A program made the position numbers and the translations under genes. From an uncultured Candidatus Saccharibacteria bacterium (GTDB taxonomy: Bacteria; Patescibacteriota; Minisyncoccia; 2-02-FULL-40-12; GWA2-44-9), in assembly GCA_964491455.1 (NCBI GenBank), contig CAZBFM010000002.1, forward strand, positions 28,947 through 92,946: 64,000 nt of DNA, in the 5' to 3' direction. Of this stretch, positions 30,776-59,136 are shown one piece after another (the first letter of the stretch is position 1; every line of letters begins with the position of its first letter). The notes beneath the pieces are model-generated. The model ran no database searches. It was given only the letters and a program-made list of their open reading frames with translations, and had not been told where the DNA came from.

Positions 30776-30789
30776 GATATACTTGGCAT

Positions 30790-42375: not shown

Positions 42376-43874
<1,499 letters not shown>

Positions 43875-44104
43875 CTTAAAAAGGAAACTTTCATTTCCCG
43901 GCTGAGAACTAATTGACTGTGTAAAATTGGAAATGTCCTGTTGGGCTGGACGAAGGTAGATATGCCTTCTTCAACAACACAACCCCGTATGCCTCCGTTG
44001 CAGAAGCATGCGGGGTTGGACTGTCTTTGTGCATTGTTTGGTGCCTTTCCCTCCTGGGTGTCGCTTTGGACTCCCTATCTACGGGGCAAGGGTCATTATA
44101 CACG

Positions 44105-44132
44105 AGCACGAAAGCCCGTCAATACCTACAAA
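44105..44132 (-). promoter_or_regulatory. Near-consensus sigma70 promoter for the 16S rRNA (TTGACG-N16-TATAAT on the minus strand), about 230 nt upstream of the mature 5' end.
   Basis: Minus-strand reading: ttgacgggctttcgtgctcgtgtataatgaccc. Confidence 0.6.
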
Positions 44133-44265
44133 ACCACAGAGAATACGCGACTCGCTCTAGTTCATCTTGAGCACCTTTCGAGATCGACGGATCGAGAACG
44201 GAGATGATTTCTTAGCAAAGAAATCATCGTGGCAAAAAATGACCGAGGACCCGATAAAAGTATCT

Positions 44266-44922
44266 CTATTGCTTTCGATTCCTTGCCCGCCAATCTGCGA
44301 TTTTCGCATGGTCGCCTGAGAGAAGCACGGGTGGGACTTTGAGTTTCTTTTTGCCCAGCGAAAATACCTCCGGACGGGTGTATTGCGGGTACTCTAAGAC
44401 GCCCTCAACGGTGTGGCTTTCATCTTCGACGCTAGCGGCTTTCTGCACGACGCCAGGGATCAGACGCGAGACCGCCTCCATGATAATCATGGAGGGCACC
44501 TCACCCCCAAAGAGCACATAAGGGCCCACTGAAAACTCCTCATCAGCAATGGTGTCGGCGACACGCTCATCGACGCCTTCATAGCGCCCGCAGATGAATA
44601 TGAGCTGGTCGTACTTGGTGAGACGCCGAGCATCTCTCTGGGTAAATTGCTTACCTGATGCAGACAGCAAGATCACGCGAGATTTCTTCGGCTTTCGAAT
44701 CTTCTTGATGGCTTTCGAAATGGGCTCAATCATCATCACCATACCCGCGCCACCACCATATGGACGGCCATCAACGGTCTTGTGATTGTCGGTAGTCCAG
44801 TCGCGAAGCTGATGTGCCTTGATGGATATAAACTTCTTTTTGATAGCACGCGCAATCAAAGACTGCCCGGCAAAATCGCCGAACAGCTCTGGAAAAATCG
44901 TGATGATATCGAATCGTTTCAT
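44266..44922 (-). CDS. trmD: tRNA (guanine37-N1)-methyltransferase.
   Basis: MKRFDIITIFPELF N-terminus, RDWT, GRPYGGGAGMVMMIEP SAM-binding/knot motifs. The start was set to the ATG at 44922. Confidence 0.9.
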   Translation of the reverse strand: MKRFDIITIFPELFGDFAGQSLIARAIKKKFISIKAHQLRDWTTDNHKTVDGRPYGGGAGMVMMIEPISKAIKKIRKPKKSRVILLSASGKQFTQRDARRLTKYDQLIFICGRYEGVDERVADTIADEEFSVGPYVLFGGEVPSMIIMEAVSRLIPGVVQKAASVEDESHTVEGVLEYPQYTRPEVFSLGKKKLKVPPVLLSGDHAKIADWRARNRKQ

Positions 44923-45220
44923 GATGATAAAAAATGTGCCCGTGTCCGTTGCGCTGGACACGGGCTGACCTCACACGAAGTGAAGCCTGTACGGCCCCTC
45001 CGCAGGCAGCTCAGCGTGAGCCTGCTTCCATCCCACAGCTTGGAGCGCGTGCACAAGGGTGTGCAGGCAGTTGATGCTCACGTTGGCCGGGATTTCCAGC
45101 GGCTGCCGCTGGCGGGTGAATGTCCCCGACAAGTACTGACGAATCTTTTTGAAGAACACTCGGTGACCCTCCTTAAGGTCTAATTAATTATACGCTAAAA
45201 ATATGCAAAAGTCAACCATC

Positions 45221-45247
45221 AAAAAAAGCCCCTTGCGGGGCTTTTCT
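45221..45247. terminator. Bidirectional rho-independent terminator downstream of the KH-domain gene.
   Basis: aaaaaaagcccc-ttgc-ggggcttttct. Confidence 0.75.
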
Positions 45248-45265
45248 GATTACTTTTCTAACTGC

Positions 45266-45598
45266 TTACTGGAGGTCTCCGAGGATGTCTTCGACATCGC
45301 GAGATGCACCTTCCTTTGAGCCCAAGAGGCCCGATGCCATGCGACCACCTTCTGGTTCTTCGATGCGAAGGTTGACGCGAGCATTATTGCGCATACCCAC
45401 GATGCGGGCCAAGATACGAATTGCCTTTGCGGTCGTGCCTGAACGACCAATCAAGAGCCCCATATCCTTGGGATCTACCTTGACTGTGATGAGCACGCCG
45501 AGCTCATCGACGCTGCGGGTAACCACCACCGCTTCTGGGTTATTGACGATACTTTTTATAACGTACTCTACAAACGCTCTGTCGTGGTCTTCGTTCAT
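45266..45598 (-). CDS. KH-domain RNA-binding protein (KhpA/YlqC-like, UPF0109).
   Basis: GLLIGRSGTTAKAIR (GxxG KH loop) in a small protein located in the rpsP-trmD neighbourhood. Confidence 0.65.
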   Translation of the reverse strand: MNEDHDRAFVEYVIKSIVNNPEAVVVTRSVDELGVLITVKVDPKDMGLLIGRSGTTAKAIRILARIVGMRNNARVNLRIEEPEGGRMASGLLGSKEGASRDVEDILGDLQ

Positions 45599-45641
45599 GC
45601 GGGAATAGTATAAATCGCTACCCCCCTACTCTAGCATGGCA

Positions 45642-48074
45642 TTACGATACGACAAGATTGAGCAGCCGCCCGGGAATATAGATAATCTTTCGAATCGTGA
45701 CACCTTCGCAGTGCTTTGCAATCATCGGATCAGCCATCGCACGACGCTGTGCCTCATCCTGCCCAGCCTTGGCAGGAATGGTGATGACGCCGCGGAGCTT
45801 TCCGTTGACCTGTACCGGCATCTGAATCTCATCGAGCACGAGGAGCGCAGGCGTATATGATGGCCACGGCTGAAGATGCACTGACGTTCTCTTTTTGAGC
45901 ACTCCTTGCCAGAGCTCATCGGTAAGATGTGGGACGAGAGGAGCAAGTATGCACAAGAAACGTTCGCGCTGTGGTTTGGTGAGCGTGGTGTTGGCCTCCT
46001 CAATCACATTGATGAGTTTCATGAGCTCGCTCACACAGGTATTCAACGACATCGCATTCAGATCGTCGCCGATCTTTTTGGTCGCCGCGTGCAGTGCACG
46101 CTCGACAATGGTGACAGGATTCTTATCTGCCGGTTTCTGGTAGAGGTTGAAGACGCGATTCAAGAATCGATAGACACCGTTGATGCCCTTCGGGTCCCAC
46201 GGACCGCCCTGCTCGTAGGGCGACATGAACGCCAAGTACATGCGAATCGTATCTGCGCCGAACTGGGCGACTTCCTTGTCAGGGTCGACAACGTTCCCTC
46301 TCGATTTTGACATCTTCTGTCCATCGGGCCCGAGAATGATGCCGTGGTTGCGTCGCGAGGTGAATGGCTCGATGAATTTCACGTAGCCCATATCGTGGAG
46401 CGCATGCGCGAAGAATCGCGAGTACAACAAGTGCATCGTGTTATGTTCGGCGCCACCGATATACATCGAAACAGGCGTCCACGCGACAAGCTTCTTGGGG
46501 TCGGCAAATTTCTTCTTGTTGGTGGGATCAGTATAGCGAAGATAGTACCAGCTCGAGTCGACAAAGGTATCCATCGTGTCCGTCTCTCGCTCGGCAGCAC
46601 CGCCACACTTCGGACACTTCACCTTGAGCCACTTGGTTGCCTTGGCGAGCGGACTGCGACCATCATCGGCGGGCTTGAAATCTTTGAGCGGTGGAAGCTT
46701 CACGGGCAAATCTTTCTCGGGCACAGGAACATGGCCACAGGCGGTACAGTTGATAACAGGAATGGGGACGCCCCAGTACCGCTGACGAGACAACACCCAA
46801 TCGCGAAGCTTGTAGGTGCGCTTTGGGCCACCCACACCGAGGTCGTGGAGCTTCTTGCCAATCATCGCCGACGCCTCGCTGCTGGTGCGCCCATTGTACG
46901 GACCTGAATTCACGAGAATACCCGCATCACTAAACACTGACGAGAGATCGTGATGCCCACCACCCACAGGCACAATCACCTGCTTCATTGCGAGATGGAA
47001 TGTCGACGCAAACTCAAAATCACGACTGTCGTGCGCAGGGACTGCCATAATCGCGCCGGTGCCGTAGGAGCCAAGCACATAATCGCCGACCCACACGGGC
47101 AAAAGCTCCGAGGTGAGCGGATGAATAGCATGCGCGCCAGTAGCAACGCCCGTCTTTTCTTTGCCGGCCTCCATACGATCAAGCTCGCGACGACCCAGCG
47201 CGCGAGAGACATAGTTCTTCACCTCTGCGGATGGTGACCATCCCACATCCATCCACTTCTTTGCCAGCTCCGGCGAGATAACCAAAAACGTCACGCCAAA
47301 GAGCGTATCTGGGCGCGTCGTAAACGTTTCCACGGTGTGTGCGTCATCGGTCTGTCCGGGAATACGCAAACGCCAGCGAATTGTGGCGCCGTCAGAACGA
47401 CCAATCCAATTCTGCTGCGCGACACGCGTAGCGTGTGGCCAGTCTAAATCCGTAAGCTGGTCGATGAGCTGATCGGCGTAGGCGGTCGTGCGCATCATCC
47501 ACTGCTCCAGCAGCTTCTGTTGCACCACTGCACCACAGCGCTCGCAGGAACCATCAACAACCTGCTCGTTGGCAAGCACCGTTTTGTCCTTGGGGCACCA
47601 GTTAACCATAGTCTTGGCGCGATACGCCAAGTCGCGTGCATGGAGCTTCAAAAACATCCACTGCGTCCACGCGTAGTACGCAGGATCGATAGTGGAAACG
47701 ACGCGCGAAAAATCAAACATCGTACCCATGCTCACCAACTGTTTGGTCATGTAGGCAATGTTCTGTTTGGTCCATGTTTCAGGATGGATATTACGCTGGA
47801 TGGCGGCGTTTTCCGCAGGAAGCCCGAACGCGTCAAACCCGATTGGATACATGACATTGTAGCCACGCATACGCCAGTAGCGAGCATACATATCCGGAAG
47901 CGCGAATGAATACCAGTGGCCCATGTGAAGATTCCCCGATGGATACGGGAACTCAACAAGAATCATCTTATTCTCCTTGCCTTTTACGCGATCGCGCGTC
48001 ACCGAGAGCTTTTTGGTAGCCCATACCTTTTGCCACTTTTTCTCGATTTTGGAGGGTTGATAGGTAGCCATCAC
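45642..48074 (-). CDS. leuS: Leucyl-tRNA synthetase.
   Basis: PYPSGNLHMGH (HIGH motif), QKMSKSRGN (KMSKS), CP1 editing-domain insertion, 810 aa. Confidence 0.95.
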   Translation of the reverse strand: MMATYQPSKIEKKWQKVWATKKLSVTRDRVKGKENKMILVEFPYPSGNLHMGHWYSFALPDMYARYWRMRGYNVMYPIGFDAFGLPAENAAIQRNIHPETWTKQNIAYMTKQLVSMGTMFDFSRVVSTIDPAYYAWTQWMFLKLHARDLAYRAKTMVNWCPKDKTVLANEQVVDGSCERCGAVVQQKLLEQWMMRTTAYADQLIDQLTDLDWPHATRVAQQNWIGRSDGATIRWRLRIPGQTDDAHTVETFTTRPDTLFGVTFLVISPELAKKWMDVGWSPSAEVKNYVSRALGRRELDRMEAGKEKTGVATGAHAIHPLTSELLPVWVGDYVLGSYGTGAIMAVPAHDSRDFEFASTFHLAMKQVIVPVGGGHHDLSSVFSDAGILVNSGPYNGRTSSEASAMIGKKLHDLGVGGPKRTYKLRDWVLSRQRYWGVPIPVINCTACGHVPVPEKDLPVKLPPLKDFKPADDGRSPLAKATKWLKVKCPKCGGAAERETDTMDTFVDSSWYYLRYTDPTNKKKFADPKKLVAWTPVSMYIGGAEHNTMHLLYSRFFAHALHDMGYVKFIEPFTSRRNHGIILGPDGQKMSKSRGNVVDPDKEVAQFGADTIRMYLAFMSPYEQGGPWDPKGINGVYRFLNRVFNLYQKPADKNPVTIVERALHAATKKIGDDLNAMSLNTCVSELMKLINVIEEANTTLTKPQRERFLCILAPLVPHLTDELWQGVLKKRTSVHLQPWPSYTPALLVLDEIQMPVQVNGKLRGVITIPAKAGQDEAQRRAMADPMIAKHCEGVTIRKIIYIPGRLLNLVVS

Positions 48075-48337
48075 TGGTACAGAGCGTAGCGCGAATTGCG
48101 CGATGTTTCAACTGGTGCCACGGACTTGCTTTAGATGCTCCAAGCGAGGATATCCTCGTGAAGAATATTTCGAGCTCGACGGAGCGAGAACGAAGAAATT
48201 CTACGAGCACGTAGAATTTCGTGTCTGAACAGGGATATCCGCGCTTAGGACTGAAACGAATGTAAAGAGAATCACAGCGCGAAAAGAGCCGGCTTTGAGG
48301 CGGCTCTTTTCGTTCACCAGACCCTTCTATGCTAGCA

Positions 48338-49063
48338 CTACTTCCCGACTATGACCAGAATGTTTGCGGTGGTTTTCGCCTCTCCCGTTGGAAGTGTCGA
48401 GACTGCTTTCACGCCAAAGATCTTCTCGAGTGCGGCAATTGCACCTGGATTCTTACCGCCTGACATATCAACAATAACAGTAGCAGTATAGATGCCCTTG
48501 GAGTCATTTGCGGTCGCACTCGTCACCCACGCATTCTTTTTAAGGTCGCTTGCTGTCTTACCTGCAAATCCCACCGTGGTGGTGCCGTTGCGAACTTCAA
48601 TGGTTACTTTTTCGGGAGCAACCGGTGTTGCGCTCGGTGTCGGTGTCAGTTGTGCGCTGCCTGACGCAATAGCATCTGGCGTCGGCGATGGTGTTGCAGT
48701 GTTTTGTGTAACCAGACCTACACCCACGAGCTTGTTGGTGATAGCGTCATAGATAATCATGCGCGTTGGATACACGATAAGAATATTGCCGTCGACGGCA
48801 TCCTGAAAGATGGCCTGCTGCTGTGCAAGTGCCGCGGCATCCTTGAGCACCACCACTGAAGGCCGCTCGTCATTGGGGACGACCATGAATTTGCTGATGC
48901 GCGCCACAACTGCATCCACCTGCGCCTCGGTAAGCTTGGTGCCAGGATTGGATGCGAGCTTTACAAGCTCATCTCCTGAACCAGAGCTAAACGTGTACCA
49001 CCCTCCAACTGCTACGACGACGACCACGACGACTCCAAGAATAATTTTGTAGGTTGTTTGCAT
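48338..49063 (-). CDS. Membrane-anchored protein with a conserved juxtamembrane domain (shared with 56037-56435 and 59982-60422) and a C-terminal LytR_C-like domain.
   Basis: N-terminal TM helix. The VVPNDERPSVVVLKDAAAL...ILIVYPTRMIIYDAITNKLVGV domain is homologous to the two paralogs. The C-terminal EVRNGTTTVGFAGKTASDLKKNAW...VIVDMSGG resembles the LytR cell-envelope-related C-terminal domain. Confidence 0.5.
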   Translation of the reverse strand: MQTTYKIILGVVVVVVVAVGGWYTFSSGSGDELVKLASNPGTKLTEAQVDAVVARISKFMVVPNDERPSVVVLKDAAALAQQQAIFQDAVDGNILIVYPTRMIIYDAITNKLVGVGLVTQNTATPSPTPDAIASGSAQLTPTPSATPVAPEKVTIEVRNGTTTVGFAGKTASDLKKNAWVTSATANDSKGIYTATVIVDMSGGKNPGAIAALEKIFGVKAVSTLPTGEAKTTANILVIVGK

Positions 49064-49153
49064 GAGATGAGCGACCTCCCTCCAGAGAGCGCATCGTTAT
49101 GAACGGGGCAATCATAGCACGCTGTTTTCGTACGGCCAGAGCACTTCTCCACA

Positions 49154-51229
49154 TTAGCGTCCTAACTTATAAAGCTGAGTGACTTCCGACGACGGCAGTG
49201 CACGGTTGTAGATGCGAACATCGTCAATCAAGCCAGGAAAGTAACGGACCCCTGTCTGCGAACCAATATGTAATTCAGAGGGAGTGGCGGGAGTAACCGC
49301 AGACGTATTTGCGGTCCGAACACCATCAACATACATGTATGTCGTGCCAGCATCACGAATCATGACAACATGATACCAGCGATTTGCGCTCGGAAAAGTA
49401 TACCCTGAATCAAAACGGGCCAGGCCAGAAAATAAGCCCTCTAGCTTTGAACCGCCACCACCAGATGCATTACCGATGCCAAACGAATATCCGTCCCCCG
49501 TTATCCCGTTATCTCTACCATTGGAAACAGCAATTACCTCGCCTGACGTAGGGAGCACAGAAGGATTTATCCACGCCGACATAGTCCAATTGTTAGTTGC
49601 GGTAGCCGATGTTGTCGAAAACGATATAGTATCATCTACCCCATCAAACTTCAGCGCCTGACCGAGCTGACCCATAATCGGACGGGGCAAGCCATTGGCG
49701 CCAGTAAGTGTGCCGTGGTTGAGGTTGGTTGTGGAGTCTTTTGCTTTCGTTGAGGTTAGATACTTGCCATCAAACGTCCAGTGACCAACGAGACCGGAAG
49801 CGAGACTCGTCCCTGTCTGAAGTTTTGCAGTCGAGGTATTTATTTTTACGACACCGGCATTATAGATGGCCGCTACTTCACCTGCCGACAATGCCCGGTT
49901 ATAAATACGTACCTCATCAATTGAGCCCGAGAAAACCTCTTGTAAAGCGCTCGAGCCAAGCGGCGTACTTGCGCCAATATAGAGAGGATCATCCGTATTT
50001 GCATTACCATTCGCAGTTCCGGTTATTGTCTGAGCACTGGCACCGTTCACGTAATACGTAACATTGAAACCAGACATAACCGCCACTACATGCGTCCAAG
50101 TATTCGTTGATAGCGTAATGGTGGTTGAGGTGTAATCTTTTACCGAAAACGTCGTAAACAACAGACCGGCACCGCTTGTTCCAAACGTAAATCCATTTGA
50201 TGTCACAGTTCGTGATGCGCCCACTATTCTGTGGATGCCTGAAAGATTCGTGCTATTTATCCATGCACTTACCGTTACGTTGGTTGTAAGAGATCCGATT
50301 GCAGTCGAAGTTCCTGCACTTACATAATCATTATTCCCATCAAAATTCAGCGCGCAAGAGCCACGCTTGCCGGCGACCCAGTTGGATGTGACGCCGGTGA
50401 GGGCGAAGTTGGTGAGCGTGCCTGTGTTGCCGCGACCAGAGTTGTCGGTGGCTTTGGTGAGTTTACAGTCTTCCATGCTCCAGTAGCCGACGAGGCCACG
50501 CGTGGTGGGCGCCACCGTTCGCGATGCTCCCCCGCTATAGAGTCGTGCAATCTCATTGCCTGTCAGCGCGCGATTGTACACGCGAACGTCATCAATGGAA
50601 CCAACAAAGAACCTTGACCCCGCTCCCGCCAAATAATTTGCCCTCCCTAGTTCTAGCGCACTACCGGAATCAACGCCTGGGCTACTTCCACGATTCCAAA
50701 CTCGTACTCCGTTTACAAACAACATGATGTCGGTACTTGTATACGTTGCTACAACATGCTGCCATACGTTCACAACCGCAGGCACACTCGTGTTTACGAG
50801 AACATTCCCGGCATGCACCTGAAATGTACCGGCGGTTATCTCAACACCCTTATCCCACTGACCATTATCCGTACACCAAAAACAGTGCGCCACGTCGATA
50901 GAGGTTGGCTTGATCCACAGAGCAACCGATACGGGCTCCGCGTCAAGGTTGAGGCCGGTATTAAGATAATCGTTTATCCCATCAAAATTGAGAGCGCATG
51001 CCCCCAGCTTGCCAGCGACCCAGTTGGATGTTGCACCGGTGAGGGCGAAGTTGGTGAGAGTACCGGTGTTGCCGCGACCAGAGTTGTCGGTGGCTTTGGT
51101 GAGTTTGCAGTCTTCCATACTCCAGTAGCCGACGAGGCCACGGGTGGTGGGAGGCTGCGTAATCCCAGCATGCGCAGAGGATGCGGAGAGGAGAAAGAAG
51201 AGCGATGTGATGAGGAAAAATCGTTTCAT
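49154..51229 (-). CDS. Secreted LamG/concanavalin A-like lectin (Laminin_G_3-type) repeat protein, copy 1.
   Basis: Signal peptide MKRFFLITSLFFLLSASSAHA. Three repeats of the LVGYWS.ED...D.SG.GN.GTL...GK.G.A..FDG..DY core typical of Laminin_G_3 domains. 691 aa. Confidence 0.75.
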   Translation of the reverse strand: MKRFFLITSLFFLLSASSAHAGITQPPTTRGLVGYWSMEDCKLTKATDNSGRGNTGTLTNFALTGATSNWVAGKLGACALNFDGINDYLNTGLNLDAEPVSVALWIKPTSIDVAHCFWCTDNGQWDKGVEITAGTFQVHAGNVLVNTSVPAVVNVWQHVVATYTSTDIMLFVNGVRVWNRGSSPGVDSGSALELGRANYLAGAGSRFFVGSIDDVRVYNRALTGNEIARLYSGGASRTVAPTTRGLVGYWSMEDCKLTKATDNSGRGNTGTLTNFALTGVTSNWVAGKRGSCALNFDGNNDYVSAGTSTAIGSLTTNVTVSAWINSTNLSGIHRIVGASRTVTSNGFTFGTSGAGLLFTTFSVKDYTSTTITLSTNTWTHVVAVMSGFNVTYYVNGASAQTITGTANGNANTDDPLYIGASTPLGSSALQEVFSGSIDEVRIYNRALSAGEVAAIYNAGVVKINTSTAKLQTGTSLASGLVGHWTFDGKYLTSTKAKDSTTNLNHGTLTGANGLPRPIMGQLGQALKFDGVDDTISFSTTSATATNNWTMSAWINPSVLPTSGEVIAVSNGRDNGITGDGYSFGIGNASGGGGSKLEGLFSGLARFDSGYTFPSANRWYHVVMIRDAGTTYMYVDGVRTANTSAVTPATPSELHIGSQTGVRYFPGLIDDVRIYNRALPSSEVTQLYKLGR

Positions 51230-51304
51230 GCGTTAACGCCCGAGATTATAGAGTTGGGTGATTTCTGCCGCGGAGAGTGCGCGGTTGTACACGCGGACGT
51301 CGTC
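51001..51304. repeat. Perfect direct repeat of about 304 bp (copy A). It spans the 5' 228 nt of LamG copy 1, the 3-bp junction and the 3' 72 nt of LamG copy 2.
   Basis: Identical base-for-base to 53080-53383 (offset 2079 bp, which equals the gene period). Confidence 0.9.
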
Positions 51305-53308
51305 AATCGTAGCGGCCATGTAGCCACCAGAGATTGATACCAGATTTGAAGTGCCTTCAATGAGTATGTTGGGCACCGTATACCCCGTATATGTCGCTCC
51401 AGCAACCACACTGCCGACTTCTACTCCATCTACATACGTCTTCGCAGTGGAGCCATTCGCCACGCCCATCACGTGTACCCATGTATTGAGCGGTATAGGT
51501 GATGCAGGTGCACTCGTAGTCTTCTGCGCACCATCGTACACATAGAAATATAGTCGCCCATCCGTATTTATGTAGAGATCCTTATCGTAGGTAGCAGCAC
51601 CAATACCATTCACAAATCCCGCGACCAACCCCTTTGCGGCGGGATAACTCGTCAGCTTCACCCACGCGGAGACCGTTACGGGTGAGGTGTTGACCACGTT
51701 CGATGAAATCACATAATCGTCGACGCCATCAAAACTAAGTGCCTGACCGAGCTGACCCATAATCGGACGGGGCAAGCCATTGGCGCCAGTAAGTGTGCCG
51801 TGGTTGAGGTTGGCGGTAGAGTCTTTTGCTTTCGTTGAGGTTAGATTGGCGCCGTCGAATGTCCAATGACCAACAAGACCCGACGCGAGGCTCGTGCCAG
51901 CCTGCAACGCCGCCGTCGACGCGTTGTATCGCGTTGCTGATGAATTATAGAGGTCGGAAATTTCATTGCCCGTCAGTGCGCGGTTATATACACGGATGTC
52001 ATCCAGGGAGCCAGCAAAATAGTAAGCACTTCGCCCGCCCATACTTAGTTGATTCACCGAGACGAAATTCGTGCTATCAGCAACGGTAGCTCCTTGCTGT
52101 ACGCCATCAAATAACATTCTATTTGATGACCCACTCCTCATCACCACCACATGATGCCACTTATTATCAAGGATTGCAGTGGCGGGTCTGCTATACACAT
52201 TGGTCGTTCCAAAGTGAGATTGTAAATATAGATCCGACAAATACATAACTATCCCCCAGTTTCCTGCTCCTGACCCGAACTGCGCAATAATTTCAGCGCC
52301 GACCGAGTCAAGACTTTTCATCCAAAATGCAATCGTGAAATCACCAGTGCCAAAAGTAAAATCTGTGGTTGAAGAAGTAAGAATCTGATCGTTTATCCCA
52401 TCAAAATTCAGCGCACACGCCCCCAGCTTGCCGGCGACCCAGTTGGAAGTGGCTCCGGTGAGGGCGAAGTTGGTGAGGGTGCCTGTGTTGCCGCGGCCAG
52501 AATCATCGGACGCCTTATTGAGCTTGCAGTCCTCAAAACTCCAATGACCCACCAGTCCACGGGTCGTTGCGGGCTTTGCACGTGACGACCCACCACCATA
52601 TAATCTCGCAATCTCATTGCCTGTCAGCGCGCGATTGTAGACCCGTACGTCATCCATGGAGCCCTGAAAAAAACGGAACGACTCTGCTGCGTTATACCAA
52701 TATCCCAGCTTAAGTGAATTAGCACTAAGAGCAACAGTTCCGGATCCCTGACCGACTATGACACCGTCAACATAGAAGGCGTAGGAGGAGCCACTTACTG
52801 TCACCGCCACGTGTTGCCACCTATTCAAGGTTATCACATTCGAGTTGGAGAGATAGCTTGTAGTTCCGGATCTCAACAAAAGACCCGAATTATTTGCATA
52901 AACGGCTAAAGCCATACCACCATCGCCGACGCCGGTTCCCTGATAAATAATGCCATTTGCCTGATTAGAGGCCCCGTATCGAGCAGGGTTAATCCAAGCG
53001 CTCATGGTAAATACACCGGAAGTGAGCACTTGAGAGCTCGACACGTAATCAGTGGTCCCATCAAAATTCAGCGCACACGCCCCCAGCTTGCCAGCGACCC
53101 AGTTGGATGTTGCACCGGTGAGGGCGAAGTTGGTGAGAGTACCGGTGTTGCCGCGACCAGAGTTGTCGGTGGCTTTGGTGAGTTTGCAGTCTTCCATACT
53201 CCAGTAGCCGACGAGGCCACGGGTGGTGGGAGGCTGCGTAATCCCAGCATGCGCAGAGGATGCGGAGAGGAGAAAGAAGAGCGATGTGATGAGGAAAAAT
53301 CGTTTCAT
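51233..53308 (-). CDS. Secreted LamG/concanavalin A-like lectin repeat protein, copy 2.
   Basis: The same architecture as copy 1. The first 76 codons are nucleotide-identical to copy 1. 691 aa. Confidence 0.75.
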   Translation of the reverse strand: MKRFFLITSLFFLLSASSAHAGITQPPTTRGLVGYWSMEDCKLTKATDNSGRGNTGTLTNFALTGATSNWVAGKLGACALNFDGTTDYVSSSQVLTSGVFTMSAWINPARYGASNQANGIIYQGTGVGDGGMALAVYANNSGLLLRSGTTSYLSNSNVITLNRWQHVAVTVSGSSYAFYVDGVIVGQGSGTVALSANSLKLGYWYNAAESFRFFQGSMDDVRVYNRALTGNEIARLYGGGSSRAKPATTRGLVGHWSFEDCKLNKASDDSGRGNTGTLTNFALTGATSNWVAGKLGACALNFDGINDQILTSSTTDFTFGTGDFTIAFWMKSLDSVGAEIIAQFGSGAGNWGIVMYLSDLYLQSHFGTTNVYSRPATAILDNKWHHVVVMRSGSSNRMLFDGVQQGATVADSTNFVSVNQLSMGGRSAYYFAGSLDDIRVYNRALTGNEISDLYNSSATRYNASTAALQAGTSLASGLVGHWTFDGANLTSTKAKDSTANLNHGTLTGANGLPRPIMGQLGQALSFDGVDDYVISSNVVNTSPVTVSAWVKLTSYPAAKGLVAGFVNGIGAATYDKDLYINTDGRLYFYVYDGAQKTTSAPASPIPLNTWVHVMGVANGSTAKTYVDGVEVGSVVAGATYTGYTVPNILIEGTSNLVSISGGYMAATIDDVRVYNRALSAAEITQLYNLGR

Positions 53309-53383
53309 GCGTTAACGCCCGAGATTATAGAGTTGGGTGATTTCTGCCGCGGAGAGTGCGCGGTTGTACACGCGGACGTCGTC
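53080..53383. repeat. Perfect direct repeat of about 304 bp (copy B), at the LamG copy 2/copy 3 junction.
   Basis: Identical to 51001-51304. Confidence 0.9.
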
Positions 53384-55489
53384 GAGAGAGCCGTTAAAAA
53401 TGTAGCGCTGATTTGCATTCGCAACATCGGCATCGCTGCCGATTCGAATAGGCCCCGAAGGCGCGTACGACGATAAGCCCGATCCCGTATTATTCAGCAC
53501 ACCGTTTATGTATAAACTCAGCGTTGTACCATCATTTACTCCAACAACGTGCGTCCATGTATCTGCAACGGGTGTGTCCGTTTGCGTCACCGTCGAGTTA
53601 CCAGCTGCATTTGAAGATCGAACCGTAAAACTAATTTTGCCACTCGAACCACCACCATCACACACGCCAAATTTAAGTATATAGGCAGACCAGGAGGTGT
53701 TTCTATTACCGTTATTGACGATAACTTGACTGCCAGTAACTACGCGCGGATTAACCCAGGCCGAAACGGTTTCAATCGTTGGTTTTAATAACGCATTATC
53801 TGCAATAGTTACAAGGTCATCCACTGCATCAAACTGTATTCCCTGACCAAGTCGCCCTGCCACAGGTTTTGGGAGGCCGTTGGTGCCAGTAAGTGTGCCA
53901 GTATTGGCATTACCACTTGAATCAAGTGCGGTAGTCGCAGTGAGAGTTGGCCCATCAAACGTCCAGTGACCGACAAGGCCGGATACAAGATTAGTGTTGT
54001 TATCGAGCGTCGCAGTGGAGACGCCAAGCTTCGTGGCCCCTGCGGTGTAGAGCGCGGCCACCTCTGGGGCAGAGAGTGCGCGATTGTACACGCGAACGTC
54101 GTCGAGAGATCCGAACATACGATACGCCGTTGATCCATTGCCATGCGTGCCGATAAAAGTATTCGACCCAAGACCGGTCCATCCAATCGATGTCGCATTA
54201 CTACCTGACTGAGCCAACACACCGTCGATGTATAGCCGCTGGGCATTTGCTACGTCATCATAGGTATACACATAATGATGCCAATCAGCAGTAGAAACTG
54301 CTCCCGAAGTAATTATCGCCCATGTAACCCCAGTGTAAAAAGCACCAATCGCGTTTGCGTTTTGAAGACGCAACGTCACATGATCACCCAAAGAAATAAT
54401 CTCGTCCTCTGAAGCATCCGCAGTTTTTCGTGCCCAACCAGCTACGGTAACATCAGTTGGGGTACCAAGAAGTCCAGTGATCTGAACATAATCATCCGTG
54501 CCATCAAACTTTAATGCGCATGAGCCTCGCTTTGCGGAGCCCCCGCTCACCCAATTGGAGGTGTTGCCCGTCAGAGTAAAATTGGTGAGCGTGCCAGTAT
54601 TGCCACGCCCAGAGGAGTCGGTGGCTATTGAACCCCTGCAATCCTCCATACTCCAGTAGCCAACCAGACCTCGCGTGGTCGAGCCAGTGACTCTCGAGGC
54701 GCCGGAGTTGTAGAGACTAGCAACTTCAGCTGTTGTGAGCGCACGGTTATAGATTCGAACGTCATCAAGTGCACCATTTAGAGGAGCAGAAGTGCCATCG
54801 GCGTCTAAGCCAATCCTTAAATTCACATCGTTTAAAATAGTATTCCCCGCGAGAGCATCAGCGGTGGTTGTTGTGGAAATCGCAGATCCATCCATGTAAA
54901 GCGTCATTCCGCTCGCAGCGCCAGAGCCTGTATACACCCCCATAACATGCACCCACGCATTCGCACGCCAAGCAGCAGTTGCCCTTTTCCTTATGTGAAT
55001 TGCAGATTGCGCATTATTCGAGATGCTCATCTGAAGCAGCCCGGACGAACCAATGAGAGAAAACCCCCTTGCAGCGGTATCTGTAGTAGTCTTATTCACA
55101 ATTGTCATCGAGGACGCCGCATTAGCAGGTTTCACCCATGCAGAAATTGTAAATGGTTGCGTAGAATCAAAATCAAAATTTGTTTCGATGGCAGTAGAAA
55201 TATAATCATCCGTACCACCGAAATTCAACGCACACGAGCCTCGCTTTGCGGAACCTCCAGACACCCAATTAGACGTTGCGCCCGTCAAGGCAAAATTTGT
55301 AATAGTGCCCGTGTTGCCCCGCCCAGAGGAGTCGGTTGCTTTACTACCTCGACAATCTTCCATGCTCCAGTAAGCAACAAGACCGCGATTATCCATTGGT
55401 CTCGTGATGCCTGCGAGAGCAGTGGGAACTTTAGCCACGAAAAAACCAACCAGCAGTGCAATAAAGAAAAAACGCCTTAAAATTTCCAT
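53312..55489 (-). CDS. Secreted LamG/concanavalin A-like lectin repeat protein, copy 3.
   Basis: Signal peptide and three LamG-like repeats. The C-terminal 23 codons are identical to those of copy 2. 725 aa. Confidence 0.75.
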   Translation of the reverse strand: MEILRRFFFIALLVGFFVAKVPTALAGITRPMDNRGLVAYWSMEDCRGSKATDSSGRGNTGTITNFALTGATSNWVSGGSAKRGSCALNFGGTDDYISTAIETNFDFDSTQPFTISAWVKPANAASSMTIVNKTTTDTAARGFSLIGSSGLLQMSISNNAQSAIHIRKRATAAWRANAWVHVMGVYTGSGAASGMTLYMDGSAISTTTTADALAGNTILNDVNLRIGLDADGTSAPLNGALDDVRIYNRALTTAEVASLYNSGASRVTGSTTRGLVGYWSMEDCRGSIATDSSGRGNTGTLTNFTLTGNTSNWVSGGSAKRGSCALKFDGTDDYVQITGLLGTPTDVTVAGWARKTADASEDEIISLGDHVTLRLQNANAIGAFYTGVTWAIITSGAVSTADWHHYVYTYDDVANAQRLYIDGVLAQSGSNATSIGWTGLGSNTFIGTHGNGSTAYRMFGSLDDVRVYNRALSAPEVAALYTAGATKLGVSTATLDNNTNLVSGLVGHWTFDGPTLTATTALDSSGNANTGTLTGTNGLPKPVAGRLGQGIQFDAVDDLVTIADNALLKPTIETVSAWVNPRVVTGSQVIVNNGNRNTSWSAYILKFGVCDGGGSSGKISFTVRSSNAAGNSTVTQTDTPVADTWTHVVGVNDGTTLSLYINGVLNNTGSGLSSYAPSGPIRIGSDADVANANQRYIFNGSLDDVRVYNRALSAAEITQLYNLGR

Positions 55490-56040
55490 GAACCTACGAC
55501 GGCGCTCATCTCTAGCTCAGCGTCGGGTGAGCCAGTGATTTGATACAAATACCCTTCATGCGTAAACCAAACCTCACGAGTACTACTCCCCGATGCATCT
55601 TTGCTCTTAAATACCAGTGCCTTAGCCCCTTGTACGACAACGGATTTTGCCCCCTCCACAATCACGTCCGGTGCGTCTTGCTGAATGCGAGCCTTGGTGA
55701 CCTCGAACTGCTCATCTTGAGGCGTGATGTAGATCTGAAAATTCTTGAGCAAGATTGTCTCACTCACATCATCCCGAATATCACCGGGTGTGCATCCCGC
55801 ACAATCAAACGAAAAAGAAGGCTTTTCGTGGACGTATCGCTTTCCACGGATTTCCCCTTTTCCGAGCGCCACCAGAGGCTCTGCTGGATTCTCCAAATCT
55901 CCATCTTCGCTAGGAGAAATTGCCACCAACGGATTGTCGGGAAGCTTAAAACCATCATTTTTCTTGGCAATCGCCCAATACCCCACCCCTGCCAGAACTA
56001 CGAGCGTGCTTATAATATAGAAGGCCTTGTTGATTTTCAT
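55477..56040 (-). CDS. Membrane-anchored hypothetical protein, first gene of the LamG operon.
   Basis: N-terminal TM (FYIISTLVVLAGVGYWAI) and a roughly 150-aa extracytoplasmic domain with a CAGC pair. It overlaps the LamG copy 3 start. Confidence 0.45.
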   Translation of the reverse strand: MKINKAFYIISTLVVLAGVGYWAIAKKNDGFKLPDNPLVAISPSEDGDLENPAEPLVALGKGEIRGKRYVHEKPSFSFDCAGCTPGDIRDDVSETILLKNFQIYITPQDEQFEVTKARIQQDAPDVIVEGAKSVVVQGAKALVFKSKDASGSSTREVWFTHEGYLYQITGSPDAELEMSAVVGSWKF

Positions 56041-56435
56041 GGTTTATTTGGCGTGGGAGATGGCGTTCCGATGGTAAGCGGAGCAATATCAATGATGCGT
56101 TTCAATGTGGGGCTATACAAAATCGCCTTCCGGGCGGTGTTATAGATAATCACCTTATCCCCTAGATGCGCATTGGCAAACAATGGCTGCCCACTCAATG
56201 CCTTCAAATCCGTCACGGTTGCAATAACCGGCTCCTCTCCCGTGGGGAGCACCACAAGCTTACTCACCTCTGCGAGGAGATCAGCGGTAGTATAGGTAGA
56301 CTTGGTATCGCGACCTAACAGAACGCGAAGCTGCGCGCGATACAACCACGCCCCGCCGATAAGCGCCACAAGAAGAAGCAACACTACCCAAGGATATATT
56401 CGGGGTTTTCCTGAAATGATTTGTTGGCCGTTCAT
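56037..56435 (-). CDS. Small membrane-anchored protein, a paralog of 59982-60422 and of the N-terminal domain of 48338-49063.
   Basis: TM helix plus LPTGEEPVIATVTDLKALSGQPLFANAHLGDKVIIYNTARKAILYSPTLKRIIDIAPL. The same block appears in the other two copies. Confidence 0.55.
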   Translation of the reverse strand: MNGQQIISGKPRIYPWVVLLLLVALIGGAWLYRAQLRVLLGRDTKSTYTTADLLAEVSKLVVLPTGEEPVIATVTDLKALSGQPLFANAHLGDKVIIYNTARKAILYSPTLKRIIDIAPLTIGTPSPTPNKP

Positions 56436-56614
56436 ATCATGACATGGTTGGAATACTCAATAATTATAAGCTTTCGATTAGCGTTGGCAACGCTTCATCG
56501 GTTGCCAATCGTAGTATGTAGAAATCGCAGCGCAAAAAAAATACGTGCAGCGCATTTCTTATTTTGAAATATATATTCTTCTCTTTATTTTCATGTTTAT
56601 GTGAGGATATTTCC

Positions 56615-58198
56615 TCAGATAAGAGCGCTACCCGTCATCTCCTTGGGTATTTTGATGTTCAGGAGCTTGAGAATCGTCGGGGCTACATCGATGAGGGATC
56701 CTGTTGATTCCCTCCGTGCCAATGATTCAATACTTTCGCCTTCTTGACCCTGCTGCACCTCGGGAAGCACAAATACGATTGGCACAGAGCGCGTCGAATG
56801 CTGCGTGTCTTCCCCGCCCGTGAATGGATCAAGTAATTCTTCAGCATTTCCATGGTCTGCCGTGATAATAAGCGCTGTATCACCTCGCTCCAACGCCGCA
56901 TTGGCTATTTGCCCGATGCAATCATCGACAACACGCACCGCTCGCTCGGTTGCTGCTAGATTTCCTGTATGCCCTATCATGTCGAGATTGGCGAGGTTAA
57001 CCGCGTACAAAACCGCATCATCATTGAGTCGCTCGATCAGCGTGCTTGTTATCTCTCGCGCCGACATCTCAGGATGTACCACGTATTGGTCCCCCCTCAT
57101 GAATCGAGAAGCGACGATGCAACGCCGCTCTCCATCGCTGGGCGTCATCCGTCCCCCGTTCAAAAAGCTAGTCACATGAGCTTCTTTCTCTTTTTCCGCA
57201 ATTCTCCACTGTCGTATGCCCGCATTACTTATCACCTCTCCCAATGTATTGGGTGGTGGAGCAGATTCATAGGCAACGGGGCATGAAAAATCACTTCCAT
57301 ATCGCGTCATGGTAACAATCATAAGGTTCGCTGGTCGAATTCTGAGCGGAAATGCTTGAAATGTGGCCGATTCAATGAATGGCGTGGCGAGTTGTTGGGC
57401 TCGATCGCTGCGAAAATCGTAGAAAATTACTGCATCATTATCTTGAACGGGCCCAATTGGCTTACCTTGAGAAACCACCGTTGCCGGGTCAATTGCATAG
57501 TCCCCCACGCCCTTCTCGTAGTTTGATTGCACATATTCCTGAGGATTTTCGATAGGCGGAGCATTTCCGTCGACAATCGCACGCCACACTTGCTCGGTAA
57601 GCTTCCAATTGAGCACTCTATCCATCGCAAAAGACCGCCCTTGCACGGATGCGATGCTGGCTCCGGACCGCCTCAGGTGAGGCTCTAGCATAGTGAGGAC
57701 CTGTATTGCATCCTGCGCTGGCATGTCTTGCCCGTCCGCTATGACATGAACAAAGACCTTCTTGAGGTTATGTCGTTTTGCTAATTCCAGAAGCGCAATT
57801 AGGTGATCCGTGTGCGAGTGAATCCCCCCTGGACTGGTACAACCGATAAGATGGAGTGCGGAATTGTGTTTTTTGGCGTGTGTAATTGCTTTTAAGAGCG
57901 CCTCATTGGTATAAAAATCGCCAGAACGTATCTGCGTGTGAATATGCGCCAAATCTTGCACCACCACCCTCCCACAACCAAGCGCAGTATGACCGACTTC
58001 GCTGTTTCCCGGCTCGCCCCAAGGAAGCCCCACAACAAGCCCTGATGCCGTAAGGGGCATAGAGACGTGCTTGGTCAGTAAGTCTTCAAGGTGAGGCATT
58101 CCAGCCCGCAGGATGGCATTTCCGGGGCCATCTGGAGCGAGCCCGAACCCGTCGATGACAAGTAGGATTACTTTCTTGAAGTTCGTTGATGATTTCAT
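56615..58198 (-). CDS. gpmI: 2,3-bisphosphoglycerate-independent phosphoglycerate mutase.
   Basis: VILLVIDGFGLAP N-terminus, catalytic Ser region (LIGCTSPGGIHSH), metal-binding DHGNAE and ITADHGN motifs. 527 aa. Confidence 0.9.
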   Translation of the reverse strand: MKSSTNFKKVILLVIDGFGLAPDGPGNAILRAGMPHLEDLLTKHVSMPLTASGLVVGLPWGEPGNSEVGHTALGCGRVVVQDLAHIHTQIRSGDFYTNEALLKAITHAKKHNSALHLIGCTSPGGIHSHTDHLIALLELAKRHNLKKVFVHVIADGQDMPAQDAIQVLTMLEPHLRRSGASIASVQGRSFAMDRVLNWKLTEQVWRAIVDGNAPPIENPQEYVQSNYEKGVGDYAIDPATVVSQGKPIGPVQDNDAVIFYDFRSDRAQQLATPFIESATFQAFPLRIRPANLMIVTMTRYGSDFSCPVAYESAPPPNTLGEVISNAGIRQWRIAEKEKEAHVTSFLNGGRMTPSDGERRCIVASRFMRGDQYVVHPEMSAREITSTLIERLNDDAVLYAVNLANLDMIGHTGNLAATERAVRVVDDCIGQIANAALERGDTALIITADHGNAEELLDPFTGGEDTQHSTRSVPIVFVLPEVQQGQEGESIESLARRESTGSLIDVAPTILKLLNIKIPKEMTGSALI

Positions 58199-58200
58199 GG

Positions 58201-59136
58201 CTATAGTGCTACTTTTTCAGTAATCCACCCCTTCGATGATTGTATATTTACCGCCACCTGTCGCTGAGGAAGCACATCAGAAGGCGTAGATACGCGGATT
58301 TCGAATCTTCCCTTTTGGCACATGAGGATATACCTGCCCTGTTCATCGCTCACCGCATACCCCACACGAGTCCCCTGCGTAGTATGTAGCGTAATGAGAG
58401 CATAGGGCAGGCCGAGTCCCGTGTGAACATCCACAATGAGACCAAATGGCGCGCCTATGAATCCCCAAATACGCAAGCTGACTAGCCCAGCAAAAACAAA
58501 AACCAATCCAGCAGTAAAAAATCCAGGCATAATGACAAAGCTCAGTGGTATAGAGAGTAATCCAAGCAAAAGACTACCATCCGCAACGAGCGCAACCAGA
58601 GCACCCTTTTGAATAGCCGGTATTGCGCTGCGAGTACGCGCGATCTCGCTGCCCTTAGAATCGAGGGGTATATCGTAATTAATAGCCTCCCCACTGGCTA
58701 AAACGAATTGCTCGCCTCGATAAGGCGCACCGAAGATCGCACTCCGCATCACAGAATCATGAGCGGACGGAAAGACAAAGCCAGGAGCAGCAACAAATAA
58801 CTTCGCAAAACACGACAAATCAGGAGATGTTGCTACTCTACCCAAAAACTCATAGCGCCCAAAACGATCGGTAATTTGCGACTCAAGTGGTCTCTGACTT
58901 TCATCACGAAGCTCAACGCGAGCAAAAGGCAATGGCATCAACGTTCGCGAATCGTAGACAACGCCCCAGGCCGTCTTCCTTCCGGGCAAGAGCTGCACCA
59001 CACGGACAACCCTTTTGATCACAAATAAAGCAAAGTTGCGAATACGAAATAGCGTCACTTTCATGCGATAAGTATACCACCAAAAGCAAAACTGAATGCA
59101 CACGGTAGCACAGAACAACAGGGACAAAATTCCCAA
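58201..59136 (-). CDS. Membrane protein with carboxypeptidase-regulatory-like beta-sandwich domains.
   Basis: ARVELRDESQRPLESQITDRFGRYEF and GYAVSDEQGRYIL (CarbopepD_reg-like GxYxF pattern), plus at least 3 TM helices. Confidence 0.4.
   Translation of the reverse strand: MGILSLLFCATVCIQFCFWWYTYRMKVTLFRIRNFALFVIKRVVRVVQLLPGRKTAWGVVYDSRTLMPLPFARVELRDESQRPLESQITDRFGRYEFLGRVATSPDLSCFAKLFVAAPGFVFPSAHDSVMRSAIFGAPYRGEQFVLASGEAINYDIPLDSKGSEIARTRSAIPAIQKGALVALVADGSLLLGLLSIPLSFVIMPGFFTAGLVFVFAGLVSLRIWGFIGAPFGLIVDVHTGLGLPYALITLHTTQGTRVGYAVSDEQGRYILMCQKGRFEIRVSTPSDVLPQRQVAVNIQSSKGWITEKVAL

Follow-up and report, generated by a model that had tools for sequence, protein, structure and literature searches.

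The perfect 305-nt repeat shared by the two internal gene junctions of a bacterial LamG-domain gene array is, as the best overall explanation, probably the fresh mark of ordinary homologous recombination within a mosaic gene family, a reading to which we give a probability of about three in four. Its two parts differ in kind: gene conversion (concerted evolution) of the junctions is well supported by the pattern of sequence identity, and comparison with the closest relative shows variable domain cores that are old and divergent and that have evidently been shuffled between slots over evolutionary time. We interpret the locus as an operon-like array on the chromosome of a Patescibacteria (CPR)-type bacterium.

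A tandem array of three LamG genes

The ORF list for the window (the whole 64,000-nt stretch of DNA that was analysed) contains three minus-strand ORFs, in tandem and back to back, just where an earlier note on this DNA had reported three LamG surface-protein genes; each encodes three Laminin_G_3 domains, and the word "surface" is a prediction. All three genes have the same orientation and are complete (ATG, signal peptide and stop), the gap from stop to next ATG is 3 nt at each internal junction, and the ATG of gene A overlaps the end of an upstream 187-aa ORF by 13 nt. The array and its surroundings comprise:

53312-55489, minus strand: gene A, the array's first gene (725 aa; signal peptide and three Laminin_G_3 domains)
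51233-53308, minus strand: gene B, the middle gene (691 aa; signal peptide and three Laminin_G_3 domains)
49154-51229, minus strand: gene C, the last gene (691 aa; signal peptide and three Laminin_G_3 domains)
48338-49063, minus strand: downstream flanking gene with a LytR_C domain (Pfam PF13399; 241 aa, N-terminal membrane anchor)
55477-56435, minus strand: two short ORFs upstream of gene A (187 and 132 aa), both with a hydrophobic stretch at the N-terminus
56463-56490, minus strand: best match to a sigma-70-like promoter (TTGCCA-16-TATAAT, 11/12 positions), upstream of the 132-aa ORF
48195-48220, minus strand: terminator-like hairpin (11-bp stem) after the LytR_C gene

The two small upstream ORFs, for which a Pfam scan returned no match, overlap one another and gene A and hence probably belong to one operon with it. 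Genes A, B and C appear to be co-transcribed and, judging from consensus matches, the operon possibly starts at 56463-56490 and possibly ends at the hairpin at 48195-48220. The 132-aa ORF has a paralog at 59982-60422 (46% identical), and about 17 kb separate the array from a type IV pilus cluster.

Predicted fold and secretion of the array proteins

In a profile scan, Pfam Laminin_G_3 (PF13385) matched three times per protein (E = 2e-80, 2e-73 and 5e-79; for gene A, E = 4.7e-79 over three stretches), and the scores of 268.5, 246.3 and 264.2 bits, set against a gathering cut-off of 27.6, place all three proteins in the family. An AlphaFold2 model of B (mean pLDDT 78) consists of three all-beta, beta-sandwich domains, each ending in a helix, and its top PDB matches in Foldseek are neurexin LNS, laminin LG, a trans-sialidase lectin domain and AbnA domain 4 (probability 1.00 to all four; target-normalised TM-score 0.76 for AbnA domain 4); as modelled, the gene B product has the LamG beta-sandwich (jelly-roll) fold. 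Head (GLVGYW...NFDG) and tail (DDVRVYNRAL plus the helix) are conserved in each domain, and the core, about 130-140 aa long, is very divergent.

By sequence reading, the proteins have a Sec-type signal peptide (MKRFFLITSLFFLLSASSAHA/G), and the C-termini stop straight after the last LamG helix (LYNLGR, LYKLGR); sequence reading and Pfam detected neither a lipobox cysteine nor a hydrophobic segment at the C-terminus, and no further Pfam domain that might serve as an anchor. Any attachment to the cell surface may be non-covalent. Fold and signal peptide together suggest a surface or adhesin role, and family membership points to glycan or partner binding in attachment.

An identical block spans both internal junctions

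The earlier note had described an identical block of about 304 bp (51001-51304 = 53080-53383) running across the 3' end of one gene, the junction and the 5' end of the next. The block is exact over these coordinates, and extending it to the maximal exact match adds one base (51000-51304 = 53079-53383; 305 nt). Its parts follow the same pattern: the shared gene end is indeed 72 nt, including the stop, and is followed by an identical 3-nt spacer, and the gene starts, which had been put at 228 identical nt, are identical over 230 nt.

53079-53383, minus strand: junction block copy 1, between A and B (72 nt of the A 3' end, the spacer CGC and 230 nt of the B 5' end)
51000-51304, minus strand: junction block copy 2, between B and C (72 nt of the B 3' end, a 3-nt spacer and 230 nt of the C 5' end)

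Copy 1 encodes the DDVRVYNRAL strand and C-terminal helix of A, followed by the signal peptide and the first strands of domain 1 of B. Identity within the block includes synonymous sites and the non-coding spacer. A slightly extended match (50977-51304 against 53056-53383) is 98.8% identical over 328 nt, with all four mismatches at third codon positions, and beyond the block borders in-register identity is at chance level (5-13 matches per 30 nt). The next-best paralogous head segments are about 89% identical; by our own arithmetic, 305 straight matches at this background have a probability of about 0.89^305 = 4e-16, and the junction identity is far beyond chance. Tracts of high identity that include synonymous and non-coding sites and end at sharp borders are the pattern by which gene conversion is recognised. 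Additionally, because the block runs from a gene end into the next gene start, crossing-over within it would remove or duplicate gene B while keeping the reading frame, and copy-number change by this route is mechanistically plausible.

A syntenic relative carries its own homogenised junctions

The only close relative found in all collections searched is a 5.2-kb metagenome contig (GCA_020049755.1, JAHZTO010054774.1; herein referred to as L083). The two loci are syntenic: the LytR_C/LeuRS flank is 94.3% identical over 1499 nt, the single-copy LytR_C gene that served as the synteny anchor is 94.2% identical at the nucleotide level, and the last 67 aa of gene A have their counterpart in the partial L083 gene X0. 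In L083, too, a gene end, a 3-nt spacer and a gene start follow one another at each of the two junctions of a 2.1-kb gene, and the two junction blocks have the same extent as those in the window.

This layout bears on whether the block could be an assembly artefact, in which the tandem order or the perfect identity came from repeat collapse or strain joining and B and C were alleles stitched together through the block. The source of the window is indeed an assembly of metagenome type (its proteins map to a single NCBI contig of 96,394 bp), short-read k=31 contigs from SRR12404947, the only sample holding the window sequence, cannot cross the repeats, and polishing or short-read assembly may have erased a few true differences, such that the perfect identity is perhaps slightly overstated. 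However, the body of B carries the block at both ends, and any genome with B must therefore either contain two copies of the block or be a chimera on both sides of B. The independent k=31 contigs are 100% identical to the flanks and end exactly 30 nt inside the repeat borders (53354 and 49685), indicating that the reads contain the repeats in two different contexts. L083 was assembled independently, and unambiguously so, since 16 of 335 positions distinguish its two copies; two further relatives (L091 and L004) have the same abutting tandem layout, and GC content is even across the array and its flanks. We consider an artefact very improbable.

The junctions resemble each other within each genome more than they resemble their positional orthologs: identity is 100% in the window and 95.2% over 335 nt in L083, and only about 85% between the two. 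Informative sites number 41; 40 of them unite the two copies of the same genome, and grouping by position has the support of none. This homogenised pair in L083, together with the sharp borders of the block, agrees with the earlier note's reading of a footprint of recent unequal crossing-over or gene conversion. Independent duplications in each lineage would also give rise to the same within-genome site pattern, but would need the replacement of all cores. Nor does functional constraint alone yield near-identity, since L091, a control with the same three-gene architecture, has junction blocks that are only 65% identical.

Identity at four-fold sites points to tracts of very different ages. In the window junction it is 100% over the 305-nt block and 94% when the first 84 codons of B are compared with those of C; it is 86% for the L083 junction pair, 80-85% for the flanks of the window against L083, 70% for the junction blocks between the genomes and 13-44% for paralogous cores. 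Between the window and L083, the array is more divergent than its own flanks.

Ancient cores occupy different slots in the two lineages

49885-50321, minus strand: variable core of C domain 2 (L083 counterpart: slot 1 of the middle gene X1)
51308-51724, minus strand: variable core of B domain 3 (L083 counterpart: the last domain, slot 2, of the final gene X2)

The core of C domain 2 matches its counterpart in X1 at 96% aa identity and 91% at four-fold sites; the core of B domain 3 matches the last domain of X2 at 86% aa identity, but at only 52% of four-fold sites. X1 has a B-like scaffold (linkers 93% identical at the amino acid level), although it shares none of its three cores with B, and X2 has two domains rather than three. 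The earlier note had proposed comparing strain genomes for cassette number and order; between the window and L083, core order and domain number differ. The best outside match of each core (35-69%) is to proteins of other organisms, often in another slot. Cores in different slots in two lineages, together with the domain count of X2, indicate shuffling over evolutionary time; with L083 as the sole close relative, this is read from a single two-genome comparison.

Within the window, the contrast between constant ends and variable middles described by the earlier note is clear: paralogous cores are 15-34% identical in amino acid sequence, and the heads of the first two domain slots 70-100%. Codon identity is mosaic. 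B and C have codons in common at every domain head (100% in domain 1, about 60-90% in domains 2 and 3), whereas conserved residues in their cores share a codon at background level only, and B and A have codons in common over the last 24 codons only. Older shared tracts include:

49631-49819, minus strand: start of C domain 3, matching 51716-51904 in B at 86.8% identity (exact over 73 nt at 49656-49728; 19 of 25 mismatches at third codon positions)
50322-50509, minus strand: C domain 2 head, matched at 89% identity by those of B domain 1 (53043-53230) and C domain 1 (50966-51151)

No further copies of the head or tail DNA were found elsewhere in the 64-kb window.

Is the array a dedicated variation system?

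The earlier note went further and saw a cassette-style diversification system and a plausible site of ongoing copy-number and antigenic variation; such a system would swap lectin cores often within a clonal population and so vary the adhesin. The architecture of constant ends and variable middles would suit it, the 305-nt perfect direct repeat would lend itself well to losing or duplicating gene B in frame, cores sit in other slots in L083 despite flanks that are 94% identical, and an array that diverges more than its flanks is what diversifying selection would predict. However, there is no arrangement of expression site and silent cassettes, all three genes being complete with a signal peptide of their own, and no silent, truncated or promoterless donor cassettes of the pilE/pilS or vlsE type were found. 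Inverted repeats are absent from 46000-59000, and none of the 33 window ORFs scanned against Pfam encodes a recombinase, integrase or reverse transcriptase. The shared tracts other than the block are 77-89% identical with many third-position changes and are thus old, indicating occasional rather than frequent exchange. Nothing, then, marks a dedicated system of cassette diversification or antigenic variation, and we consider one unlikely.

Diversity-generating retroelements (DGRs) are reportedly common in CPR genomes, and repeat pairs of 100-300 nt at 77-89% identity, which a DGR or a shufflon or inverton might act upon, are present in the locus. Yet in every pair the mismatches fall mostly at third codon positions and lack an adenine-specific pattern, and every repeat is an in-frame coding paralog. 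With no adenine bias and no reverse transcriptase among the scanned window ORFs, a DGR is effectively refuted; a shufflon or inverton is likewise at odds with the lack of inverted repeats in 46000-59000 and of recombinases among the ORFs scanned near the array. The chance that either kind of element is at work is negligible.

A model of junction homogenisation and core exchange

In our preferred reading of ordinary homologous recombination, the heads, the tails and the junction of stop, spacer, ATG and signal peptide would supply tracts of DNA homology, between which general (presumably RecA-dependent) recombination would act and make the constant parts uniform within a genome by gene conversion, or concerted evolution. 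The 305-nt perfect block, spanning both internal gene junctions, would be the youngest homogenised tract; the ancient cores would have been moved, replaced, added or removed between slots and genes over evolutionary time, and gene B might be lost or gained in frame via crossover within the block.

We tentatively raise the further idea, which we think more doubtful than not, that heads, tails and junctions, beyond their structural part in the fold, are kept as recombination joints through which a host-dependent Patescibacteria lineage exchanges ancient cores between slots, genes and, by DNA uptake, strains; the type IV pilus cluster about 17 kb away is noted in this context. It would fit both an array more divergent than its flanks and a core re-slotted at 96% identity. 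If true, shuffling at the population level would adjust the binding targets of the cell, as a counterpart to host-range variation that works by recombination.

Implications for CPR attachment

Life attached to other microbes is the presumed habit of Patescibacteria/CPR, and the abundant lectin-like proteins that they secrete are leading candidates for mediating it; lectins of this kind have been speculated to mediate the attachment of Patescibacteria to other cells (PMC12911398), and likewise of DPANN archaea (PMC9563170). The literature searched holds no account of gene conversion or core shuffling in CPR lectin-like proteins, and the diversification of these proteins appears largely undescribed. 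The mechanism proposed here is textbook, and the value of the locus lies in a documented case rather than a new principle: it is a clean, datable example with uniform joints, re-slotted ancient cores and a repeat placed for in-frame gene gain or loss. As a hypervariable locus, it is also one where strain-resolved or long-read metagenomics could follow variation in host interaction, with the practical warning that loci of this type break short-read assemblies exactly at the repeat borders.

Comparison with known systems

The best structural and sequence matches to the array domains are eukaryotic multi-LG/LNS proteins (neurexin LNS1-6, laminin LG1-5) and bacterial LamG-like modules (AbnA domain 4, PDB 5hon; an S-layer domain protein, PDB 4qvs), which are non-catalytic binding modules in series, as is predicted here, at a sequence identity of only 9-20%. 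Closer relatives are plentiful in CPR bacteria: 2977 homologs were found at E<=1e-20 among the candidates scored, including proteins named "LamG domain-containing protein" in Moranbacteria, Paceibacterota, Uhrbacteria, Giovannonibacteria, Parcubacteria and Taylorbacteria, and tandem abutting arrays also occur in four further relatives (L003, L004, L091 and L092). Patescibacteria/CPR LamG proteins likewise combine a signal peptide with three LamG domains in about 700 aa (relatives with about five domains reach about 1150 aa), and full-length identity to them is at most about 41%, L083 and the window's own paralogs excepted. Compared with these other CPR proteins, the perfect junction block and the documented re-slotting of cores relative to a near relative are this lineage's own.

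In Neisseria pilE/pilS, Borrelia vlsE/vls and Anaplasma msp2, conserved repeats bound variable segments and guide homologous recombination. The array resembles them in having variable segments between conserved repeats; unlike them, it has no single expression site, no promoterless partial cassettes and no adaptive-immune context.

A nearer likeness is to babA/babB/babC of Helicobacter pylori, where RecA-type gene conversion homogenises the ends of paralogous outer-membrane adhesin genes and makes chimeras: there, too, the copies are full-length with near-identical ends and divergent middles, and there are no silent cassettes. The bab proteins have an unrelated fold and the cell envelope differs, the array genes are adjacent, and the array is known from its sequence. 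With three repeated domains in each array gene, exchange would also be possible between slots within one gene, unlike in the bab genes.

Array Layout and Genomic Setting

Nine LamG domains with a period of ~690 nt, which was also picked up by the repeat finder (family D2), make up three tandem genes, A, B and C, in which a 3-nt spacer, CGC, lies between each stop codon and the following ATG; the ATG of gene A overlaps an upstream 187-aa ORF.

53312-55489, minus strand: gene A, ORF of 725 aa, first transcribed
51233-53308, minus strand: gene B, ORF of 691 aa, second transcribed
49154-51229, minus strand: gene C, ORF of 691 aa, third transcribed
56490-56463, minus strand: promoter-like site, consensus match only
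48220-48195, minus strand: terminator-like hairpin, consensus match only

The overlapping and abutting ORFs, together with the promoter-like site and the hairpin, suggest that the array may be co-transcribed. The window is ordinary chromosome, with a housekeeping content that includes a 16S rRNA gene, LeuRS, TrmD, GAPDH, a split transketolase and phosphoglycerate mutase, and it also carries a type IV pilus cluster. No 23S or 5S rRNA gene was detected across the 64-kb window, and the rRNA genes therefore appear unlinked. Horizontal acquisition marked by composition was rejected, as GC content is flat (0.48-0.54) throughout the array and its flanks.

42375-43881, minus strand: complete, solitary bacterial 16S rRNA gene, between trmD/LeuRS and other housekeeping genes
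23526-32418, plus strand: type IV pilus-like cluster
21441-23099: 7TM histidine kinase, immediately upstream of the pilus-like cluster
56037-56435, minus strand: 132-aa ORF with a copy of a recurring small domain
59982-60422, minus strand: 146-aa ORF with a second copy, 46% identical
48338-49063, minus strand: LytR_C protein, third copy in its N-terminal half, 30% identical (E=1e-7)
60460-63936, minus strand: 1158-aa ORF near the array, sole Pfam match the glycine-rich domain Gly_rich_2

The pilus-like cluster encodes a PilB-type ATPase with a response-regulator receiver domain fused to its N-terminus, a PilC-type platform protein, a 608-aa pilin-like protein with an N_methyl motif and CarboxypepD_reg/Big_1 domains, and three large ORFs lacking a Pfam match. 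The small domain that recurs three times around the array, each time behind an N-terminal hydrophobic (membrane-anchor-like) segment, likewise has no Pfam match.

The Encoded Proteins

Each protein consists solely of a Sec-type signal peptide (e.g., MKRFFLITSLFFLLSASSAHA|G) and three LamG domains: Pfam Laminin_G_3 is matched three times per protein (A, E=5e-79; B, E=2e-73; C, E=2e-80), with no further Pfam domain and no anchor motif readable in the three sequences. B was modelled with AlphaFold2 from an alignment of 45 homologs (mean pLDDT 78); the model predicts three all-beta domains with a short helix at the end of each. Foldseek searches of the PDB with this model matched neurexin LNS, laminin LG and the trans-sialidase lectin-like domain, as well as botulinum toxin binding domains and domain 4 of AbnA, which binds arabinan, and a PDB sequence search returned 4qvs (an S-layer domain protein) and 5hon; all of these matches are non-catalytic binding modules. 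We infer that the A, B and C proteins may act as surface adhesins. The family is very large and, where sources give it a name, is called "LamG domain-containing protein" in Moranbacteria, Paceibacterota, Uhrbacteria, Giovannonibacteria and related groups; attachment to other cells by concanavalin-like lectins has been raised purely as speculation for Patescibacteria (PMC12911398) and for DPANN archaea (PMC9563170).

A Near-Identical Block Spans Both Gene Junctions

The exact repeat described in the earlier note (51001-51304 = 53080-53383) is present, with maximal identity over 305 nt (51000-51304 = 53079-53383), and it extends to 328 nt at 98.8% identity with four differences, all at third positions. 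Within the block, the terminal 72 nt of one gene are followed by the spacer and by 230 nt from the start of the next gene; the 72-nt gene end thus stands as first reported, and the gene start is 230 nt, not 228 nt. Past both borders, in-register identity falls to chance level. B and C share a length of exactly 691 aa, giving a block offset of exactly 2079 nt despite unequal core lengths (133/130/139 vs. 127/138/137 aa); the equal length is probably coincidence.

Two k=31 contigs, assembled independently from run SRR12404947, match the window at 100% identity.

43831-49685: matched by the first k=31 contig (L001)
53354-60496: matched by the second k=31 contig (L002)

L002 reaches exactly 30 nt past the A-side border into the block (53384 minus 30), and L001 ends exactly 30 nt after entering a 73-nt exact run (49656-49728) common to C and B. 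Stops of this kind arise in a de Bruijn graph when one sequence occurs in two contexts in the reads; these breaks do not prove the order A-B-C. It is nonetheless very unlikely that the repeat was created by the assembly, given that both ends of the body of B carry the block and that an independently assembled relative (L083, below) has the same layout with non-identical copies, even if polishing may have removed a few genuine differences between the two copies here.

The Array Is a Mosaic of Tracts of Differing Age

Every domain comprises a conserved head (GLVGYW...NFDG), a divergent core of ~130-140 aa and a conserved tail (DDVRVYNRAL plus a helix), with the head of domain 3 forming a separate type. 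Amino acid identity is 70-100% among heads of domain slots 1 and 2 and just 15-34% among paralogous cores. Between B and C, head codons are shared in all domains (100% in domain 1, ~60-90% in domains 2 and 3), and within the cores conserved residues have the same codon at background level only; codon sharing between B and A is confined to the last 24 codons. In all shared tracts the mismatches lie mostly at third codon positions, with no bias towards adenine. From this codon-level profile and these mismatch positions it follows that the array is a mosaic of tracts differing in age, of which the 305-nt block is the youngest. The best outside match of each core (35-69%) lies in a protein of another organism, often in another slot, which marks the cores as old modules, re-slotted repeatedly.

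Comparison with a Close Relative

Only one close relative was found in any collection searched, the syntenic 5192-bp contig JAHZTO010054774.1 (GCA_020049755.1; L083), whose LytR_C and LeuRS flank is 94.3% identical to that of the window over 1499 nt. Its array runs from the end of a gene X0 through X1 (708 aa) and X2 (475 aa) to LytR_C, again with 3-nt spacers. A comparison of the kind proposed in the earlier note shows differences in the cassettes: L083 has cores in other slots, and X2 contains two LamG domains only.

The two junction blocks of L083 match each other at 95.2% over 335 nt, an extent equal to that in the window, and junction blocks compared between the two genomes are just ~85% identical. 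When the four blocks are aligned, 40 of 41 informative sites group copies within a genome and none groups them by position; this within-genome grouping is the signature of concerted evolution. Tract ages were ordered by identity at four-fold sites.

Identity at four-fold sites
Single-copy flanks: 80-85%
Junction blocks between genomes: 70%
Window junction: 100% over the block, 94% over the first 84 codons of B and C
L083 junction pair: 86%
Core C2 vs. first core of X1: 91%
Core B3 vs. last core of X2: 52%
End of A3 vs. X0: 47%
Paralogous cores: 13-44%

X1 resembles B in its constant scaffold (linkers 93% identical at the amino acid level), but none of its three cores is one of B's. Its first core is instead of the type of the second core of C (96% amino acid identity), and the type of the third core of B occurs in the last slot of X2 (86%). 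Three of the five complete L083 cores lack a window counterpart, as do four of the six B and C cores an L083 counterpart. Core divergence of this order is too great for point mutation at 6% flank divergence, and the cores must therefore have been moved or replaced by recombination.

The array as a whole is more divergent between the two genomes than its flanks (47-70% vs. 80-85% at four-fold sites). Core C2 is the exception, being at least as similar as the flanks, a pattern consistent with that single core having been transferred or moved recently.

Other LamG Loci

Beyond L083, three protein-database searches returned no close relative, exact-protein look-ups of A, B and C matched no record, a cluster look-up yielded neither names nor accessions, and the best relatives in a scan of species-representative genomes were Patescibacteria MAGs at 31% identity, which places the source genome outside that set. 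A phage origin or vehicle was rejected, IMG/VR holding only distant (29%) LamG relatives. A JGI metagenome scan anchored on LytR_C recovered two loci at 64% identity, both with a different secreted protein at the array position.

L084, 161-2197: Hainich groundwater contig, non-LamG gene upstream of LytR_C (64% identical)
L085, 26-1396: Hainich groundwater contig, likewise
L091, 3790-10184: array of triple-LamG genes used as a control (GCA_029288695.1, JARIGU010000543.1)

The protein at the two groundwater loci is large and secreted, with short N/T/G-rich repeats, a Pro/Thr-rich C-terminus and no Pfam match, which fits the position upstream of LytR_C being a variable slot for secreted or envelope proteins.

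The control, on a Patescibacteria-type contig, contains three abutting triple-LamG genes (696, 705 and 727 aa) with TAGCATG junctions. An ORF called at 11,440 aa lies immediately upstream of them, and GAPDH, transketolase/pentose-phosphate genes and a 7TM histidine kinase lie downstream. This architecture and protein-level conservation of heads and tails are family traits, as confirmed by a 45-sequence consensus. The junction blocks of the control are just 65% identical; near-identity of DNA is therefore not a family trait and requires recent recombination. The same figure counts against functional constraint at the nucleotide level as the cause of the identity, which was rejected on the ~15% difference between L083 and the window in the same block.

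Perfect junction repeats were sought in four other Patescibacteria arrays (L003, L004, L091 and L092), and partial ones only were found. In L003, the last 75 nt are 91% identical and a 218-nt tract at 91% crosses a gene end. Very recent internal repeats occur in other multi-LamG ORFs: in L005 (5483-6467; 298 nt at 97.7%, offset 687), in a 1470-aa ORF of Patescibacteria (L006, 1385-2748; 701 nt at 99.6%, offset 663) and in a 4527-aa ORF of Cytophagales (L045, 9572-12006; 323 nt at 99.4%, offset 2112). These four loci have undergone similar recent partial homogenisation or domain duplication.

Probable Homologous Recombination and Known Systems

We consider the best-supported reading to be general homologous recombination for which the head, tail and junction tracts supply the homology (probability about 0.75). 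Within a genome, gene conversion would keep the junctions uniform, and cores would be re-slotted, replaced, added or removed by occasional exchange. The gene conversion initially proposed for this array agrees with the within-genome grouping and with the sharp borders of the 305-nt block. A crossover between the block copies would remove exactly one gene-length unit (2079 nt) and leave A and C intact and in frame, and on sister chromosomes it would duplicate B in frame; we infer this loss or gain from the geometry of the block and from how direct repeats a few hundred base pairs long generally behave. Older shared tracts stand at 77-89% identity, indicating that exchange is occasional, not frequent.

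No feature of a dedicated or rapid variation system, such as the cassette-style diversification originally proposed, was found in the window: neither the ORF list nor a repeat search of the window contains silent or truncated cassettes, no inverted repeats were found in the array region, and the 33 window ORFs scanned against Pfam include no recombinase or reverse transcriptase. A diversity-generating retroelement (DGR) was rejected on the mismatch spectrum and the lack of a reverse transcriptase among the scanned ORFs, and an inverton or shufflon on the lack of inverted repeats in the array region. A less likely possibility is that the joints serve, and are kept for, population-level shuffling of cores by which partner binding is tuned.

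Literature searches yielded no description of such gene conversion or core shuffling in Patescibacteria LamG arrays. Taken singly, the two elements are familiar: LamG proteins from CPR bacteria, and gene conversion from paralogous genes for envelope or adhesin proteins. Paralogous genes of the latter kind, with constant ends and variable middles, undergo gene conversion in, for example, the bab genes of H. pylori, which are the closest working analogy to the array.
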